64,000 bases of DNA from an uncultured Candidatus Saccharibacteria bacterium (GTDB lineage: Bacteria; Patescibacteriota; Minisyncoccia; Minisyncoccales; PEYH01): the NCBI GenBank assembly GCA_964388775.1, contig CAYMBW010000001.1:71317-135316 (forward strand). Direction: 5' to 3'. Made by a program: the position numbers and the translations under genes. How positions within the stretch are numbered: position 1 is the first letter of the stretch; each line of letters opens with the position of its first letter. Below, in pieces: positions 5,972-58,876 of this stretch. The notes beneath the pieces are model-generated. The model saw only the letters and a list, made by a program, of their open reading frames with translations, was not told the origin of the DNA and ran no database searches.

Positions 5972-6080
5972 GTTTCCTTTGGTCAAATTAAAAAATTAAA
6001 ATGAAAAATTAAGAATAAGAATAAAATATTTCTTGTGGTTAATACAATATCATACCCTTTATTTTTTTTCAAGCTTGAGC

Positions 6081-6118
6081 GGTTGAAAGCAAGCGGGGAA
6101 TAGGGAAATTAAATTTGA
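6081..6118 (+). repeat. promoter-like direct repeat, copy 1 (GTTGAAARCAAGCRGGRAATAGGG), upstream of the DGR
   Basis: About 30-nt core shared with 9375-9417 (4 mismatches); contains -35-like TTGAAA. Confidence 0.5.
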
Positions 6119-6126
6119 CTTTGTTT

Positions 6127-6162
6127 TGACAATGTGTTATGATGATGTTGTTATTATAATGA
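6127..6162 (+). promoter_or_regulatory. candidate promoter for the DGR target gene
   Basis: TTGACA followed 20-23 nt later by TATTATAAT; strong SD AAGGAGG 8 nt before the ATG at 6300. Confidence 0.3.
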
Positions 6163-6299
6163 AGTTCTTTGAAAAAAGAGGTTCAACCTTATGAGGCGAG
6201 TTCTTTGGGCGTCCCTCAAAAGGGATTTCTAAAGGTCTCGTCTCATAAAAGAGACAAGACGTTTATCCGAGCGAATCGGGTAAGCAAAACAAAAGGAGG

Positions 6300-7208
6300 A
6301 TGACGATGCCAAAAGCATTGATCACTAGCCGTGACGACAAAGGTCGTCATGCGGTCCACTTGTTCGAGATTGAGTATGACAAAGCAAGACTCGATGATGC
6401 ACGCGCGCAGCGGCTCAACGAGCGTGGAGGCGAACTCCAGGAAGGCATCGCAAAGCTCATCGCAGAGCTCTCGGTGTCCAACCGGTTCGCTGACGAGGAA
6501 ATGGAGTCGAGTTACACCTACCCAGGGGAGTACAAGGGGCCGAAGCCGATCGAGGAGCAGATCAAGGCAATCGCCAAGATCTTTGGACTTGACCCGAGTC
6601 AGGCGTTGGAATACGCCAAGAACTTGCCGGCGCTCCCCGAGGGTGCCGAAGGGTGGTTCGCAATCCCGTCGGTCGACGCACTTGCCAAGAGGCACTTCCC
6701 CGAAGTGACTGACCCGGTTGAGAAGTACTGCCGAGCTGTTCAGCTCGTTCACGCCAAGATCGCGGAATTTCGAACGTTCTGCAACTACCGCGAGGGGCAG
6801 ATCACACCTGACCACCTTCGGATGCATGCTCATACGGCACGCACACTCGAGCAGATCGCTGAGACGCAGAAGGGTGATATCCTAATCATCGCTGCTGAGC
6901 TCGGCATGAGGCACGGGAATCCGATTGCCCGCTCTGTTCGCAGAGCTCGTGAGGTTTTCATCGATAACGAGTTCGGCCTCGGATCAGTGGCAGGAGGATC
7001 CATCCTTCTGACTCATCCAGAGAGAGAGGTTCGATGGGAACAGCTTCACATGGTTCTTCCTGGCGATGAGTTTGCCCCGGGAGCCGGTGGCGATTTCTCG
7101 GGCGCGCCCTGCTTCTACTTCCACGACGGCAGGCTCGGGTTCGGCACGTACTGGCTCGACAATGCCAATCAGAACTATGGCTCGGCGTCCGGCTTTCTCC
7201 CGCAGTAG
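6300..7208 (+). CDS. DGR target (variable) protein with C-terminal variable repeat; no signal peptide; GC-rich relative to host
   Basis: Last 41 codons (AGGDFSGAPCFYFHDGRLGFGTYWLDNANQNYGSASGFLPQ) form the VR; gene is about 55-65% GC in a roughly 34% GC genome; SD AAGGAGG. Confidence 0.85.
   Translation: MTMPKALITSRDDKGRHAVHLFEIEYDKARLDDARAQRLNERGGELQEGIAKLIAELSVSNRFADEEMESSYTYPGEYKGPKPIEEQIKAIAKIFGLDPSQALEYAKNLPALPEGAEGWFAIPSVDALAKRHFPEVTDPVEKYCRAVQLVHAKIAEFRTFCNYREGQITPDHLRMHAHTARTLEQIAETQKGDILIIAAELGMRHGNPIARSVRRAREVFIDNEFGLGSVAGGSILLTHPEREVRWEQLHMVLPGDEFAPGAGGDFSGAPCFYFHDGRLGFGTYWLDNANQNYGSASGFLPQ
7083..7205 (+). repeat. DGR variable repeat (VR), 3' end of target gene
   Basis: 123 nt aligning with 7640-7762; 12 mismatches, every one at an A in the TR copy; identical GC-rich 3' end (IMH-like). 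Confidence 0.85.
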
Positions 7209-7282
7209 TACTTTGGACTCTTGGGACTTTTGAACCCTTTTGGGGGTTTGACTTCTTGTCTCGGGGGCTAACAAGACATCAA

Positions 7283-7325
7283 TGAGGGCTGTTCACCACG
7301 CATGACAGCCCTCACTCTTTTTTTA
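7283..7325 (+). terminator. rho-independent terminator after the target gene
   Basis: GAGGGCTGT-tcaccacgcatg-ACAGCCCTC followed by a T-run; preceded by a second hairpin TCTTGT-ctcgggggcta-ACAAGA (7252-7276). Confidence 0.6.
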
Positions 7326-7639
7326 TTTTCTAAACCTGATATACTGATAGACGAGTATAGGCTAATGTATGGCAGTTTACGCCCGCCTGCAGCGCTTTGC
7401 GCAGCAATGCGGGCAGGGATTGCTATCGCCGAACTCTCTCTTCAATAAAAAGAGATTAAACAACCAGAATCTTGACGACTACGGTTTTCAAGAGCGAGTT
7501 GTCTTGAGGAGATACTGCTTGCTCTTGTCTGGGGCAGATGCCTCGAGTTTATCGAGGGGCTGCTGCCGAATAAAATACAGGAAGAAAAGATTTTCTTAAC
7601 TTCCAGTGATATGGATGGACAAGGGCAAATTAACCGGAA

Positions 7640-7762
7640 GCCGATGGCGATTTCTCGAACGCGCCCTACTTCAACTTCAACGACGGCAAGCTCAAGTTCG
7701 ACACGAACTGGCTCGACAATGCCAATCAGAACTATGGCTCGGCGTCCGGCTTTCTCCCGAAG
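7640..7762 (+). repeat. DGR template repeat (TR)
   Basis: Encodes ADGDFSNAPYFNFNDGKLKFDTNWLDNANQNYGSASGFLPK in the VR frame; the variable codons are AAC, AAG, GAC, GAT and TAC; about 29 A residues, 12 substituted in the VR. Confidence 0.85.
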
Positions 7763-7765
7763 TCT

Positions 7766-7806
7766 CTTCTCAAAGAACAAAGAGTGTCTGTTTTAAGACA
7801 CTCTTT
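7766..7806. terminator. perfect 14-bp hairpin immediately 3' of the TR, also at the 3' end of avd on the minus strand
   Basis: AACAAAGAGTGTCT-gtttta-AGACACTCTTTGTT; possible bidirectional terminator or DGR structural element. Confidence 0.5.
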
Positions 7807-7815
7807 GTTTATCAG

Positions 7816-8166
7816 TTAATTATTCAAGGACCTTATCCAACCGCCGAGCATTCGGCCGATTTCATCAATTTCTTTTTCAATCAAGATATATTTTTTATTA
7901 TCCAATGCCTTTGTATCTTTTAATAAGCGCATAAATATGCGGAGCATATCAAGCATAGAATCAATATTTCTTAAATCTTTAAGTTTTTCATTTTTAGGAA
8001 GACGGCTTACTTTAAGAATGGACTCTATAATCTCAAGCAGGGCATCCTCTGTTTTTGCATATATCGTAAATCTGTCCTGTTTAGGAATCAGGTACCTGAA
8101 TTCATGAAGTAATTTGTATAATTCATACAACTTTTTGAAAATGGGGATTTCATCTTCAATATTCAT
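7816..8166 (-). CDS. avd: DGR accessory variability determinant (Avd-like four-helix-bundle protein)
   Basis: 116 aa; C-terminus EIDEIGRMLGGWIRSLNN and overall pattern match Bordetella bAvd / 23S-IVS four-helix-bundle family (EVGRILGSWIARVN). Confidence 0.75.
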   Translation of the reverse strand: MNIEDEIPIFKKLYELYKLLHEFRYLIPKQDRFTIYAKTEDALLEIIESILKVSRLPKNEKLKDLRNIDSMLDMLRIFMRLLKDTKALDNKKYILIEKEIDEIGRMLGGWIRSLNN

Positions 8167-8187: not shown

Positions 8188-9240
8188 ATGGACTTATTTA
8201 ATCAAATAATTTCTTTAGAGAATTTATTTTTGGCTTGGGATAAATTCAAGAAAGGAAAGGGGAATAAATTAGATGTCCAGGAATTTGAATTTAATCTTGA
8301 AAAGAATATATTCCAACTTCACAAGGATCTTAAAAATAGATGCTATATCCATTCGCCATATGAAAGTTTTTTTATTAAAGATCCGAAAAGAAGGAATATC
8401 CATAAGGCCACTGTCCGAGATCGTGTAGTCCATCATGCTATATTTGCGATAATTAACCCGATTTTTGAGCCGACCTTTATTTCCAATTCTTTCTCTTGTA
8501 GGGTTGGCAAGGGAAATCATAAAGGCGTAGATGCCCTCGCAAGAATGATAAGGAAAGCAAGTAATAATGGTTTTAAAAATTGTTTTATTCTTAAATGCGA
8601 TATTAAAAATTTTTTTGGAACAATTGACCATAGAATTTTATTAGACATTGTCCGCAAGCGGATAAAAGACGATGACTCAATGCGGCTCTTGGAAGAAATT
8701 ATTGAAAGTTTTTCTTCCCAATATTCAACTCTTTTTGAACGAAAAGGTTTGCCGATAGGCAATTTAACTTCTCAATTGTTTGCCAATATCTACCTTAATA
8801 AATTTGACCAATTTATTAAGCACAAATTAAGGATTAAGAATTATCTAAGATATACTGATGATTTTGTAATTTTATCAGGAGATAAAATCTATTTAGGAAA
8901 ACTTATCTCAACGATTAGTTTATTTCTCTCGGATAATCTTGCTCTTAAATTACATCCTAAAAAAGTTACAATTCGCAAATTTCATCAAGGGATAGATTTC
9001 CTTGGCTACATACTTCTGCCGCATTATCGTCTTCTGCGGGCGAAAACAAGACGGCGAATATTTAGAAAGATAGGGGAGCGAATTAGGGAATATAAAAATG
9101 GGACAATCAGTGAGCAGTCCCTCGTACAATCATTACAATCATATCTTGGCGTCCTATCACATGCTAATACATATGAGCTTGAACAAGAATTGAGAAATCA
9201 ATTTTGGTTTTGGCTCAATTCGGTTCCGTCAACCCGATAG
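8188..9240 (+). CDS. DGR reverse transcriptase
   Basis: RT motifs include the DGR-specific GLPIGNLTSQLFANIYL (I/LGxxxSQ) and YxDD box RYTDDFVIL; N-terminal LFLAWDKFKKGK. Confidence 0.9.
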   Translation: MDLFNQIISLENLFLAWDKFKKGKGNKLDVQEFEFNLEKNIFQLHKDLKNRCYIHSPYESFFIKDPKRRNIHKATVRDRVVHHAIFAIINPIFEPTFISNSFSCRVGKGNHKGVDALARMIRKASNNGFKNCFILKCDIKNFFGTIDHRILLDIVRKRIKDDDSMRLLEEIIESFSSQYSTLFERKGLPIGNLTSQLFANIYLNKFDQFIKHKLRIKNYLRYTDDFVILSGDKIYLGKLISTISLFLSDNLALKLHPKKVTIRKFHQGIDFLGYILLPHYRLLRAKTRRRIFRKIGERIREYKNGTISEQSLVQSLQSYLGVLSHANTYELEQELRNQFWFWLNSVPSTR

Positions 9241-9374: not shown

Positions 9375-9417
9375 GTAGTTGAAAACAAGCAGGAAATAGG
9401 GTAATATTAAAGTGGAT
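9375..9417 (+). promoter_or_regulatory. direct repeat copy 2 / sigma70-like promoter for the downstream toxin pair
   Basis: TTGAAA, 17 nt, TAATAT; homologous to 6081-6118. Confidence 0.45.
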
Positions 9418-9720
9418 ATGAAACAAATACCCCAATTTTTGCAGAAATATTTTTGGGATGTAGATTTTTTAACTCTAAATGTAAAACAGCATCCCCGATT
9501 TGTTATTGAGAGGATTTTAGAATACGGAGATAAAAAATCAATTAAATGGATGGAAGATAATTTTTCTTTAGGAGAAATTAAGAATACCCTTTTTATTTCT
9601 AAAAATCTTTCGCAAAAATCAGCCAATTTTTGGCAGCTTATTTTCGGCTTAGATAAAGATAAAATTCTATGCTTGAGGAAATCATTTCAAAAAAGACACA
9701 AAGCAATTTGGAGATATTAA
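9412..9720 (+). CDS. small protein upstream of nucleotidyltransferase, putative antitoxin partner (ATG at 9418)
   Basis: 102-aa ORF overlapping the next gene by about 50 nt in another frame (typical TA operon layout); no strong motif. Confidence 0.35.
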   Translation: MDMKQIPQFLQKYFWDVDFLTLNVKQHPRFVIERILEYGDKKSIKWMEDNFSLGEIKNTLFISKNLSQKSANFWQLIFGLDKDKILCLRKSFQKRHKAIWRY

Positions 9721-10283
9721 TAAAATCAGACATAATTGCCGATTTTTATCTTGCCGGCGGGACAGGGTTGGCTTTATATTTAAACCATCGCCTTTCCGTT
9801 GATTTAGATTTTTTTAGCAAAAAAGAATTTGATAATAAATCCCTGCTTCAAGAGATTAAAAAAATAGGCAAATTTTCAATCGGGAAAGAGTCGGAGAATA
9901 CTTTAGCGGGTGTTTTTAATGATACAAAAATCGCTTTTTTGACATACGATTATCCTCTTCTTTTTCCATTAAAAAAAATTAGAAATATTAACGTTGCCGA
10001 TATCAAAGACATTGCTTGTATGAAAATCTCCGCGATTTCTTCGCGGGGCAGTAAAAAAGATTTTATTGATTTATACTTTATTTGCCAGCAGGGCATTTCA
10101 TTAAAACAGGTATTAATGCTGTTTGGAAGAAAATACAGGGGCATTGATTATAATATGATGCATATTTTGAAAAGTTTGGTCTTTTTTAATGACGCCGATA
10201 GCGACCCTATGCCAAAAATGTTGGTTCCTGTTACTTGGGAACAGGTCAAGAAATTTTTTCAAGGAAAAGTAAAAACAAATTAA
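9669..10283 (+). CDS. nucleotidyltransferase of AbiEii/DUF1814-like toxin family (tentative)
   Basis: FYLAGGTGLALYLNHRLSVDLDFF matches the GGTAL...HRxSxDLDF nucleotidyltransferase signature. Confidence 0.5.
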   Translation: MLEEIISKKTQSNLEILIKSDIIADFYLAGGTGLALYLNHRLSVDLDFFSKKEFDNKSLLQEIKKIGKFSIGKESENTLAGVFNDTKIAFLTYDYPLLFPLKKIRNINVADIKDIACMKISAISSRGSKKDFIDLYFICQQGISLKQVLMLFGRKYRGIDYNMMHILKSLVFFNDADSDPMPKMLVPVTWEQVKKFFQGKVKTN

Positions 10284-16024: not shown

Positions 16025-16096
16025 GTCCCTGTGGTTCAACGGATAAAACACCTCCCTCCGGAGGAGGAAATGGCTGTTCGAATCAGCCCAGGGACA
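16025..16096 (+). tRNA. tRNA-Arg (anticodon CCG)
   Basis: Hand-folded cloverleaf: acceptor GTCCCTG/CAGGGAC, anticodon stem CCTCC/GGAGG with loop CTCCGGA, T-arm GGCTG-TTCGAAT-CAGCC, discriminator A; CCA not encoded. Confidence 0.7.
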
Positions 16097-16278
16097 CAAA
16101 AGTCCATGGGAGGAAGCATGGAGGGAAGTCCGACTTCCCCCTTTCCCTCGGAATAATTAACCTACAAATCATACTTGATTTTGGTCAGAAATTAAATGAC
16201 TTAACCAATGCCCCTATGTGCCCTTATGGTTAGATTTTAGATGATTCAATGCGAGGCATCGCAAGAATAGAGATTTTT

Positions 16279-24470: not shown

Positions 24471-24491
24471 ACTTTTATAATTATTTATTTT

Positions 24492-24870
24492 AGTGGAGAT
24501 GGCGGGATTTGAACCCGCGTATGGGAAGGCGTTTGAATTGTTTCTACAAGCTTACCTTGATTAATGTTGTCGGTCAGAGGCCTTGAATCAAGGGAAACAG
24601 CTTCTGGCTTAGGCCTAATTTTGGCAATTCTTTTCGGCCAACGAAGAATCGCTTATCTCGATAAATTACACCCGTTTTGCTTATCGAGAGTCCGCAAAAC
24701 AGATGGGCGTTGATTATTGCTAATCAAGCGCCGACCGTGGCGTTATGCATAAGCATAAGCCGGTCTTTGAAATAAGTTGGCACTTATTTGATTCTTGGAA
24801 GTTTAGCCAGATTCCAAGAGCTGGGCTTGCGCAATTCATCAGCTGTTTCCTATCGATGCCTTTCACCCCC
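24492..24870 (-). ncRNA. ssrA: tmRNA (SsrA)
   Basis: 5' GGGGGTGAAAGGCATCG..., 3' tRNA-like end GGGTTCAAATCCCGCCATCTCCAC; candidate tag frame GCC AAC TTA TTT CAA AGA CCG GCT TAT GCT TAT GCA TAA (ANLFQRPAYAYA); adjacent to smpB. Confidence 0.7.
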
Positions 24871-57453: not shown

Positions 57454-57807
57454 TCAATTTTCCGGAGAGAGCATTCTCCGAACCGTTTCGCCCACTTGTT
57501 CCGGGCGGCAGAATTCGCATCCTAACTTTTCAAAAACCGTACGTTCGTAGGAAAACTGTGAGACAGCGACAGCAGTCATCCCCGGCCTATTGACGATAGA
57601 AAAGGCAACAGCGCGCGGGTCCTCGTAGTGGTCTCCGTCAAACCCGCGAGCATTGAAAAGGACGATGTCGGGATGAATCTCACCGATTTGCCGCATTCCT
57701 GTTTCCTCGGTCAACGCCACAGCAAGGTTGCACTTGCCTTTTGCCACTTCTTTTTCTATCTCTCGGCGTACTCCTTCGGGTGTGTTTATCAGTAGCACTG
57801 TCTTCAT
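57454..57807 (-). CDS. GC-rich hypothetical protein with receiver-like (CheY-fold) pattern lacking the phospho-acceptor Asp residues
   Basis: KTVLLINT...PDIVLFNARGFDGD resembles a receiver domain with Asn in place of Asp; the gene is about 52-55% GC in a roughly 34% GC background. Confidence 0.35.
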   Translation of the reverse strand: MKTVLLINTPEGVRREIEKEVAKGKCNLAVALTEETGMRQIGEIHPDIVLFNARGFDGDHYEDPRAVAFSIVNRPGMTAVAVSQFSYERTVFEKLGCEFCRPEQVGETVRRMLSPEN

Positions 57808-58717: not shown

Positions 58718-58792
58718 TGGTTTCTCTATTTTTAACTTTTCATTTTTAACTTTTAATTTGAGCGAAGTTCGCCCAAGGCGGACAAGCGATTG

Positions 58793-58876
58793 TGCCGGAG
58801 GAGGGAATCGAACCCACAAGTCCTTGCGGACAATGGATTTTGAATCCATCGTGTTTACCTATTTCACCACTCCGGC
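58793..58876 (-). tRNA. tRNA-Leu (anticodon CAA)
   Basis: Minus strand reads GCCGGAGTGGTGAAATAGGTAAACACGATGGATTCAAAATCCATTGTCCGCAAGGACTTGTGGGTTCGATTCCCTCCTCCGGCA: 7-bp acceptor, long variable arm, T-loop TTCGATT, anticodon loop TTCAAAA. Confidence 0.8.

Follow-up and report, generated by a model that had tools for sequence, protein, structure and literature searches.

The target gene of a diversity-generating retroelement (DGR) in an uncultured Patescibacteria member differs sharply in nucleotide composition from the genes of the machinery that diversifies it. The element lies in a stretch of 64,000 nucleotides (hereafter, the window; positions 71,317 to 135,316 of the contig CAYMBW010000001.1, assembly GCA_964388775.1, labeled Candidatus Saccharibacteria and assigned to Patescibacteriota, PEYH01, in GTDB), in which the target gene, with its variable repeat (VR), and the template repeat (TR) are GC-rich whereas avd and the reverse transcriptase (RT) gene are AT-rich. 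This compositional step is real, highly non-random and no artefact. It is not peculiar to the window genome but is a pattern that recurs across the clade, and the composition of the target is decoupled from those of the host and the RT. The best account of the step, which we consider probable albeit far from certain, combines an inherited GC-rich composition of the target, horizontal replacement and slow amelioration. The portions of the cassette across which the composition changes are these:

6300-7208 (+), DGR target gene of 302 amino acids, from a Patescibacteria-wide family without a curated domain; GC content 57.8%
7077-7206 (+), VR, the final 43 codons of the target, a 130-nt repeat 90% identical to the TR; GC content 64.6%
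7209-7633, spacer between the VR and the TR; GC content 45.4%
7634-7763 (+), TR, with 31 adenines; GC content 56.2%
7764-7815, gap between the TR and avd; GC content 34.6%
7816-8166 (-), avd, 116 amino acids; PF22296 (bAvd, E-value 5e-19), NF033474 (DivGenRetAVD) and phrog_3206; GC content 31.6%
8188-9240 (+), DGR RT, 350 amino acids; PF00078 and phrog_1423, with the motifs IGNLTSQ and YTDD; GC content 33.2%

The mean GC content of the window is 39.1%, and the stretch 6300-7763 climbs to 54%. Background windows of the same length as the target have a mean of 38.8% (standard deviation (sd) 2.4, maximum 45.8%), which leaves the target ~8 sd higher, and compared with the 50 other open reading frames (ORFs) of the window (mean 38.6%, sd 2.9), the excess is ~19 points. 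Among these 51 ORFs, the target is an extreme outlier at all three codon positions, with GC1, GC2 and GC3 of 0.63, 0.42 and 0.68, respectively, against averages of 0.449, 0.321 and 0.388 (sd ~0.04-0.05); for GC3 in particular, the value is 0.680 compared with 0.388 ± 0.041 and a maximum of 0.484 among the other ORFs. Arithmetically, the 19-point excess divides roughly equally between codon positions 1 and 2, taken together, and position 3. At the protein level, Ala, Arg, Glu and His are more abundant in the target than in host proteins, and Lys, Asn and Ile are less abundant. The share of C-ending codons at two-fold degenerate NNY codons (Y, pyrimidine) is 0.69 in the target and 0.31 in the host genes (host maximum 0.43), and the share of G-ending codons at two-fold NNR codons (R, purine) is 0.76 versus 0.36 (host maximum 0.46). 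Accordingly biased are the individual codons: ATC accounts for 16 of the 18 Ile codons, and AAG, GAG and CAG make up 10 of 13, 20 of 28 and 9 of 9, respectively. The sliding-window GC and codon usage analysis that an earlier note on this DNA had proposed thus singles out the target in both respects (58% vs 39% GC and foreign usage of NNY and NNR codons).

The edges of the GC-rich segment follow genes rather closely. The maximum-likelihood change points lie at ~6328, 7204 and 7859. On the left, the GC content climbs from ~6180, with 45% in 6181-6299 compared with 25% in 5987-6180; at 7204, that is, at the target stop codon, it drops from 59% to 46%; on the right, it falls from 0.53 (7660-7779) to 0.325 (7780-7899) in 120-nt windows. 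The boundary that the earlier note had placed at ~7765, near the 3' end of the TR, is therefore roughly right. The overall profile has three tiers, with the spacer intermediate, so the range of 53-68% GC that the note had given for the target, the spacer and the TR holds for the first and the last (57.8% and 56.2%) but not for the spacer, at only 45.4%. Similarly, the 32-36% that it had assigned to avd, the RT and the rest of the window is accurate for the two genes but not for the rest, which is at 38.8-39%, with only the adjacent pair of DUF6922 and AbiEii genes (28-33%) also being low. The genes for avd, the RT and the DUF6922/AbiEii pair (28-33% GC) are 2-3.5 sd, or 5 to 10 points, under the host mean.

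The locus is a DGR, with a TR/VR pair, an RT, Avd, a C-terminal VR, a VR end resembling the initiation of mutagenic homing (IMH) sequence and an RNA flanking the TR. All 13 mismatches between the VR and the TR are at an A in the TR, and 30 of the 31 TR adenines occupy codon positions 1-2 of the VR frame. The RT contains PF00078 (RVT_1, E-value 1e-21) and matches the phage DGR-RT profile phrog_1423 (4.8e-115). The motifs [I/L/V]GxxxSQ and YxDD are diagnostic of DGR-type RT. The avd product exceeds the cutoffs of both the equivalog NF033474 (86 bits, cutoff 80) and PF22296 (69 bits, cutoff 40).

The generality of the step is apparent from a scan in which each GTDB species was represented by one genome; it yielded 80 target loci (L001-L080), 63 of these with enough flanking sequence. 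In these 63 loci, with host GC content of 30-61%, the mean GC content of the target is 57.8% (sd 6.3). The target exceeds its flanks in 62 of the 63 loci, by 14.3 points on average (Wilcoxon p 6e-12), and is the most GC-rich window of its length in 45 of 55 loci (up to 20 kb scanned). The GC content of the RT closely tracks that of the host (slope 0.89, r 0.81) with an offset of -4 points, and the dependence of the target on the host is weak (slope 0.46). In GC-rich hosts, the target is near the host composition. About 20 loci retain the layout of target, ~370-460 nt, TR of ~130 nt, avd (-) and RT (+), with A-only mismatches, and two loci have the TR-avd-RT block upstream of the target, in inverted orientation. 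In a neighbor-joining tree of the targets, GC3 ranges over 0.41-0.56 in one monophyletic clade (L022, L029, L030, L032, L033, L037 and L058), the hosts of which have 33-46% GC; in the remaining clades, GC3 is 0.67-0.94, and low-GC and high-GC hosts are interleaved on the tree. Outside the low-GC clade, the GC content at four-fold degenerate sites (GC4) of the target is 0.72 ± 0.06 across host GC4 of 0.27-0.73 (slope 0.16 ± 0.08, logit slope 0.17 ± 0.10), and inside this clade, the slope on the host is 0.55.

Comparison of individual loci reveals how this decoupling could have come about. The loci L001 and L002 share target bodies that are 93% identical at the amino acid level and ~0.9-0.97 identical at the nucleotide level (synonymous divergence, dS, of 0.28), with RTs that are 57% identical, VRs that are ~60% (~0.6) identical and a different orientation of the cassette. 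Between L002 and L005, the target dS is 0.23 versus 28-52% identity of six syntenic flank proteins, and target copies in hosts of 35 vs 53% GC are separated by dS of 0.23-0.40; these dS values were obtained with NG86, the reliability of which is poor given such divergence and codon bias, and are used, as is the singleton test below, for support only. High identity of the bodies combined with the divergence of the RT, the VR and the flanks implies horizontal exchange of target bodies, at times unaccompanied by the VR, the TR and the RT. In L004 and L018, an internal block of ~60 codons is 0.59-0.73 identical, compared with 0.92-1.00 in the rest of the gene, and such mosaic identity profiles indicate recombination inside target genes. 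Incongruence between the phylogeny of the target and its neighbors is shown for the family, not for the copy in the window.

The window copy itself is old and partly ameliorated. Its dS to every relative outside its own population is >1.1, with the nearest ones 74-75% identical. The four-fold GC content is 0.52 (host 0.48, family ~0.74), and the two-fold GC content is 0.74 (host ~0.34, family ~0.80). Derived synonymous singletons from G or C to A or T (S>W) outnumber the reverse changes (W>S) 9:1 in the window copy and 12:1 in that of the sister locus L008; pooled, the ratio is 30:4 in hosts with ≤39% GC and 19:10 in hosts with ≥50% GC. This direction fits decay toward the host composition. 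As a separate observation, several partly ameliorated copies (6300-7076 of the window, L008, L016, L043 and L050) show four-fold values of 0.52-0.64 and two-fold values of 0.73-0.81, a gap that exceeds the prediction from a simple difference between transitions and transversions.

Under the account that we favor, three causes would be superimposed in the step: an exchanged GC-rich target gene, a TR that mirrors the VR and a structured spacer RNA. The target body would come from a gene pool with a composition of its own (~58-63% GC, GC4 ~0.72) that is exchanged among Patescibacteria, often with replacement of the gene body only, so that the composition would be inherited rather than set by the current host; the sharp, gene-bounded edges together with the flat GC3 inside the gene fit such gene-sized exchange. 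The half of the excess at positions 1 and 2 would be held by purifying selection, and the synonymous half would decay slowly. In the codons that are diversified, only the first two positions carry the adenines of the TR. Avd and the RT would evolve with the host and remain a few points lower in GC content, which is common for accessory genes. The GC step would then be a by-product of mosaic ancestry and local constraints, neither an assembly error nor something that the mechanism requires. The step itself, its generality, the activity of the DGR, the decoupling of the target from the host and the RT, and the RNA structure are shown; which way and when genes were transferred, and why the pool was GC-rich at the outset, we infer.

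The contributions of the VR, the TR and the spacer can be separated from that of the gene body. In all loci, including the ameliorated ones, the GC content of the VR is 57-73% and that of the TR 49-63%. The VR exceeds the TR by ~8-12 points (~8 in the window) because the adenines of the TR are replaced by any nucleotide, and the TR is GC-rich because it copies and encodes the VR, which is rewritten from the TR. In lineages in which the target body is at 42-46% GC, the VR remains at 57-65% and the TR at 49-57%. Because intact, A-biased DGRs with host-like bodies exist, a high GC content of the body is not required for function. Thus, the suggestion that the template is kept GC-rich for functional reasons is supported for the VR and the TR but not for the gene body. 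The GC content of the spacer is raised because a structured RNA domain is encoded there.

The strongest challenge comes from targets of other families. A metagenome scan with an RT alignment detected 598 related loci, of which 80 (L088-L167) were examined and 49 had an A-biased TR/VR pair. The targets of 16 of the 49 belong to the family of the window target, and those of the other 33 do not (no hidden Markov model match at E≤10; at least 12 BLAST clusters). Across the 49 loci, the mean GC content is 0.64 for the VR and 0.53 for the TR. A few unrelated bodies are at or under the host level (GC3 0.17-0.38), with the DGR intact. GC3 is flat along the target body, and the host level is reached within 150 nt outside the ORF. 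The unrelated families show no A-specific depletion (A3 0.20, T3 0.23) and no gradient away from the VR. Avoidance of adenine, or read-through mutagenesis of the whole target, was considered as a cause of the bias and rejected, given the flat GC3, the drop at the edges and the similar A3 and T3.

Several points weigh against inheritance, replacement and slow amelioration as the full explanation. In the unrelated families, the GC content of the body is higher than that of the RT in 28 of 28 loci (by 15 points on average) and higher than that of the flanks in 20 of 22 (by 10 points on average), and the same sign of the bias in at least 12 unrelated families weakens a purely historical account; a systematic force favoring GC in DGR targets would be more economical than the derivation of every family from GC-richer backgrounds. 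In the window copy, the four-fold sites are host-like and the two-fold sites have hardly moved, which simple neutral decay does not predict. As a rough estimate, at dS >1.1, a constant stay in a host of 39% GC should have brought GC3 under 0.68. The excess of S>W changes at the tips is also expected under a universal AT-biased mutation, even with GC maintained, and the singleton test is biased to S>W because the rule of a unanimous outgroup under-counts W>S. No close donor of the window target is sampled, and the taxonomy and divergence of the hosts were taken from record titles, flank GC content and a few syntenic proteins, not from a genome phylogeny.

The rival that draws on most of these points is active maintenance of the GC content by a GC-favoring force acting on DGR targets. 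This force could be GC-biased gene conversion (gBGC), tied to how often paralogous or foreign copies recombine, or selection that acts on the target at the DNA or mRNA level. We regard it as unlikely, albeit to be taken seriously. Beyond the shared sign of the bias in the window family and at least 12 unrelated ones, it would account for the persistence of GC3 of 0.76-0.86 in hosts of 33-36% GC and for the flat GC3 with gene-bounded edges, as if conversion tracts were limited by homology; mosaic recombination is visible, and several genomes carry two or three target copies. In addition, the coding-strand ratio A/(A+T) at four-fold sites is 0.33 in the window target family vs 0.42 in GC-matched host genes, a modest difference that is confounded by phylogeny. 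A constant gene-specific force, however, predicts a logit slope of ~1 on host composition, and the observed slope is 0.17 ± 0.10. Furthermore, the target is roughly at the host composition in GC-rich hosts, GC3 resembles or falls below that of the host in an entire clade and in several other families whose DGRs are intact, the tip changes are S>W and more strongly so in low-GC hosts, and the other families lack both the A-specific depletion and the gradient away from the VR. The still broader proposition, that DGR targets across unrelated families are held far above the host GC content by a process linked to being a target (gBGC or selection on the nucleic acid), appears doubtful; if true, the step between the TR and avd would be a compositional compartment linked to the mechanism, not a historical accident.

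It is improbable that a high-GC donor from another lineage supplied the target and the TR as a block, in a single recent event, and that this block was joined to a resident RT. The foreign codon usage of the target, the AT-richness of avd and the RT, and the end of homology to other loci at ~6237 and ~9220, with the flanks conserved without the cassette, would all be accommodated by such an event. It is at odds with the distance of the nearest relatives outside the population (74-75% identity, dS >1.1), all named ones being Patescibacteria, and with the location of the TR within an RNA-TR-avd-RT module that is conserved in more than 20 loci. In the nearest relatives, moreover, the similarities of the RT and the target agree (65% and 75% for L001; 65% and 70% for L008), and the four-fold sites are already host-like, so that the event would not be recent. 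The earlier note had proposed a module of target and TR from a high-GC donor paired with a host-like RT; of this, the foreign, GC-rich codon usage and the decoupling of the composition from the host and the RT stand, but the pattern is recurrent across the clade, no close donor is sampled, and the TR belongs with the RNA, avd and the RT, in a module that occurs on either side of the target. The search for homologs of the target protein that the note had asked for detects 2067 homologs, ~70% identical, with the named ones from Patescibacteria.

Codon bias linked to very high expression, with translationally optimal codons in the target, is highly improbable. C-ending codons indeed dominate NNY (0.69), ATC takes 16 of the 18 Ile codons, and rpsT has the second-highest GC3 among the host ORFs (0.467). 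But at NNR, G-ending codons are enriched to the same degree as C-ending ones at NNY, for which reason translational selection was rejected; G-ending NNR enrichment is not the usual wobble-driven preference. GC1 and GC2 are raised too, and the maxima among host genes, 0.43 (NNY-C) and 0.46 (NNR-G), are nowhere near the target.

The element is active, and its VR is undergoing diversification in the population. Four further contigs from four samples, two from JGI (L085, 3300028193, 130 kb; L081, 3300028272) and two from ENA (L086 and L087, k141-named; samples ERZ27248937 and ERZ27248939), match the window identically over 5-11 kb, apart from 12-16 differing positions within 7081-7174 and one site elsewhere in L085. 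In L081, 12 of the 13 differences are at TR adenines. It is this confinement of the differences to the VR, mostly at TR adenines, that demonstrates the activity. A chimeric assembly, or a mis-join at either junction (6200-6300 or 7760-7830), might be suggested by the abruptness of the GC change and the termination of L081 at 7299, shortly past the VR, but is effectively refuted: L085, L086 and L087 cross both junctions without differing from the window outside the VR, save for the one site in L085; 32 blocks of a public collection index the exact RT protein; and the same architecture is present in more than 20 other species. The earlier note had likewise deemed a chimera unlikely, and the identical contigs from independent assemblies bear it out. 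The direct repeats that it had described as bracketing the unit were not found in the window, where the only significant direct repeat is the VR/TR pair itself. An imperfect inverted pair of 16 nt (6164-6179 and 7763-7778) was judged to be due to chance; its right arm belongs to a conserved RNA duplex.

The amelioration of horizontally acquired genes has reportedly been modeled by Lawrence and Ochman. The present case resembles this model in the atypical GC content at the three codon positions, the foreign codons, the incongruence within the family and the range from un-ameliorated to host-like copies. It differs in the lack of an integrase, a tRNA and flanking repeats, in that only one gene of a functional cassette is atypical in this way, with the others deviating oppositely, in the recurrence of the bias in unrelated target families and in the very different stages of decay at four-fold and two-fold sites. 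Signatures of mobility were not detected around the cassette: there are no flanking direct repeats, no integrase domain is seen in the neighboring genes, and the nearest tRNA is at 16025. The copies form a natural series, from fresh import to full amelioration, in which amelioration or GC-biased conversion could be measured in unculturable bacteria.

In a survey of DGRs, ~20% differed from the host by ≥5% GC, which was read as recent horizontal transfer (Wu et al. 2018; PMC5758913). That work treats the DGR as one compositional unit, whereas the cassette in the window deviates from the host with opposite signs; such opposite deviations imply that averaging GC over the whole element hides the signal and that tests for horizontal transfer can cancel out. 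The same survey describes GC-rich segments flanking the mutagenized part of the TR and the VR (PMC5758913), and the pattern in the window agrees. The DGR cassette is not one evolutionary unit, with the diversified gene and the RNA-TR-avd-RT machinery having separate histories in Patescibacteria. Neither the order of GC content, target above host above RT, nor the exchange of targets independently of the RT was found described in the literature searched, the coverage of which is incomplete.

With the 'DGR clade 2' of Patescibacteria, also known as the candidate phyla radiation (CPR), the element shares the chromosomal location in a small AT-rich genome, the combination of the RT and Avd, and the short C-terminal VR (Roux et al. 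2021; PMC8144416). The target resembles other CPR targets in lacking a transmembrane segment or a recognizable domain, and hundreds of related RT loci are found in metagenomes, as is the case for that clade (PMC8144416). Nothing contradicts the placement of the element as a likely ordinary member of this clade. From the prototype, the element of the Bordetella phage BPP-1 (mtd-avd-TR-brt), it differs in being chromosomal rather than phage-borne and in the gene order, here target, RNA-TR, convergent avd and RT; common to the two are the A-specific differences between the TR and the VR, Avd, a group II-like RT with IGxxxSQ, and the invariant GC-rich 3' end of the VR and the TR.

The full order of the cassette is target (+), structured RNA, TR (+), hairpin, avd (-) and RT (+), and it includes the following further features:

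6115-6143 (+), promoter-like site, TTGACT-17-TATGAT with TG, 10 of 12 matches to the consensus, in the AT-rich intergenic region after rpsT; putative function
6237-6299 (+), target 5' leader, where blastn homology blocks begin (6237-6294) in many loci and GC content is rising
7175-7206 (+), IMH-like 3' end of the VR, with the invariant GC-rich GGCTCGGCGTCCGGCTTTCTCCCG followed by CAGTAG in the VR vs AAGTCT in the TR; likely role, by analogy with IMH/IMH* (PMC5758913)
7230-7327 (+), two hairpins past the target stop, at 7230-7251 and at 7284-7313, the latter with a T run after it; likely a terminator or post-IMH inverted repeats
7461-7628 (+), five-helix structured RNA domain that immediately precedes the TR and is conserved across at least 20 loci
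7504-7512 (+), 5' strand of a long-range duplex, UUGAGGAGA, which pairs with 7765-7773 and encloses the TR
7765-7773 (+), 3' strand of the duplex, UCUUCUCAA, immediately past the TR
7776-7809 (+), perfect 14-bp hairpin (100% complementary) between the TR and the convergent avd, a putative terminator and/or Avd-binding element

The IMH-like segment contains a 24-nt identical, GC-rich run at 7179-7202 before the VR and the TR diverge. Nucleotide homology between the window and other loci covers 6237/6256-7209, 7414-7770, avd and the RT to ~9220, with none outside. Within the spacer, 7220-7410, which contains the terminator-like hairpins, is not conserved between loci, and 7414-7633 is conserved.

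The RNA around the TR is structured. RNAalifold analysis of 15 loci yields five helices at 7461-7628 with 43 pairs, 34 of which show compensatory changes; 96.1% of the cells are paired, compared with 38-51% when the partners are slid, and none of 500 shuffles reaches the observed value. For the duplex between 7504-7512 and 7765-7773, 85% of the cells are paired versus 47-65% when slid, and 7 of the 9 pairs are compensatory (22 loci). Each related locus has a hairpin of its own just 3' of the TR, at 7776-7809 in the window. No Rfam family matches 7200-7830 at E≤1. An upstream-downstream duplex and a downstream stem-loop have been described for BPP-1 and other DGRs (bioRxiv 10.1101/2023.10.23.563531), and by analogy, the duplex enclosing the TR and the hairpin downstream of it could be equivalent to the cPRT-stop duplex and the Avd-binding stem-loop of that work. 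In BPP-1, the large structured segment is the 140-nt spacer 3' of the TR, whereas here the bulk of the structured RNA, ~170 nt, is 5' of the TR, with only ~50 nt and one hairpin downstream. By this comparison, this clade of DGRs may organize priming differently from BPP-1. The covarying RNA 5' of the TR provides a concrete hypothesis on priming in this clade that can be modeled and searched for.

The target family, with its 2067 homologous cluster representatives (typically ~70% identical), is very widespread and highly conserved, and moves among lineages of very different GC content. The named homologs come from Parcubacteria, Pacebacteria or Vogelbacteria, that is, from Patescibacteria only, and dN/dS is 0.1-0.25. 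Three ORFs that overlap the target, 6243-6833 (-), 6331-6708 (+) and 6984-7274 (-), were taken to be by-products of the high GC content, given this dN/dS in the annotated frame. The protein has no match in Pfam, NCBIfam, PHROG or PADLOC, and a sequence profile search of PDB detected no relative. An alignment of 84 diverse sequences gave an AlphaFold2 model with a predicted local distance difference test score (pLDDT) of 90.7 and was used instead of one of 26 close homologs, with which the pLDDT was 37; Foldseek searches of PDB and BFVD with the model returned no significant match. Weak matches (E ~1-5) over ~40 columns to TvpA and phage tail-collar proteins hint at a possible lectin-like C-terminus. 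Carriage by phages was considered and rejected: there are 3 matches among 2.9 million IMG/VR contigs, with flanks of 35-50% GC like those of cellular loci, and nothing points to a GC-rich viral vehicle.

In L020, L027, L067 and L074, there is, beside the first, either another VR-like copy or a second target gene in tandem, and VXOY01, JAQVXM01 and LCIO01 are among several metagenome-assembled genomes (MAGs) with 2-3 target homologs on different contigs. About 50 of the 80 species loci contain a target homolog without an RT or avd within 10 kb. Many TPA-assembled MAGs that carry the target gene (L001, L007, L023, L025, L030 and others) are titled 'uncultured Gammaproteobacteria', 'Saccharibacteria' or 'Bdellovibrionales', labels that look unreliable; one of these is a 1.0-Mb 'Gammaproteobacteria' chromosome, OZ246408.1.

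The cassette is flanked by rpsT on one side and, on the other, by the DUF6922/AbiEii pair, beyond which are ruvA and the gene for a Mur ligase. The locus L009 shares the rpsT-holA synteny and has a target homolog nearby in the opposite orientation. The DUF6922/AbiEii pair (9412-10283, +), directly past the RT and before ruvA, resembles type IV toxin-antitoxin or abortive infection systems and is, at 28-32% GC, the most AT-rich part of the window; all contigs from the same population contain it, but it is not conserved beside the DGR in other species. The only other ORF of the window that is even mildly GC-rich, 57454-57807 (-), encodes 117 amino acids (51% GC, GC3 0.53), belongs to no Pfam or NCBIfam family and sits between the genes for an MscS-type channel and a ParA-like ATPase. 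The housekeeping RNAs of the window, none adjoining the DGR, are a tmRNA at 24491-24870 (-) with the tag ANLFQRPAYAYA, tRNA-Arg(CCG) at 16025-16097 (+) and tRNA-Leu(CAA) at 58792-58876 (-).

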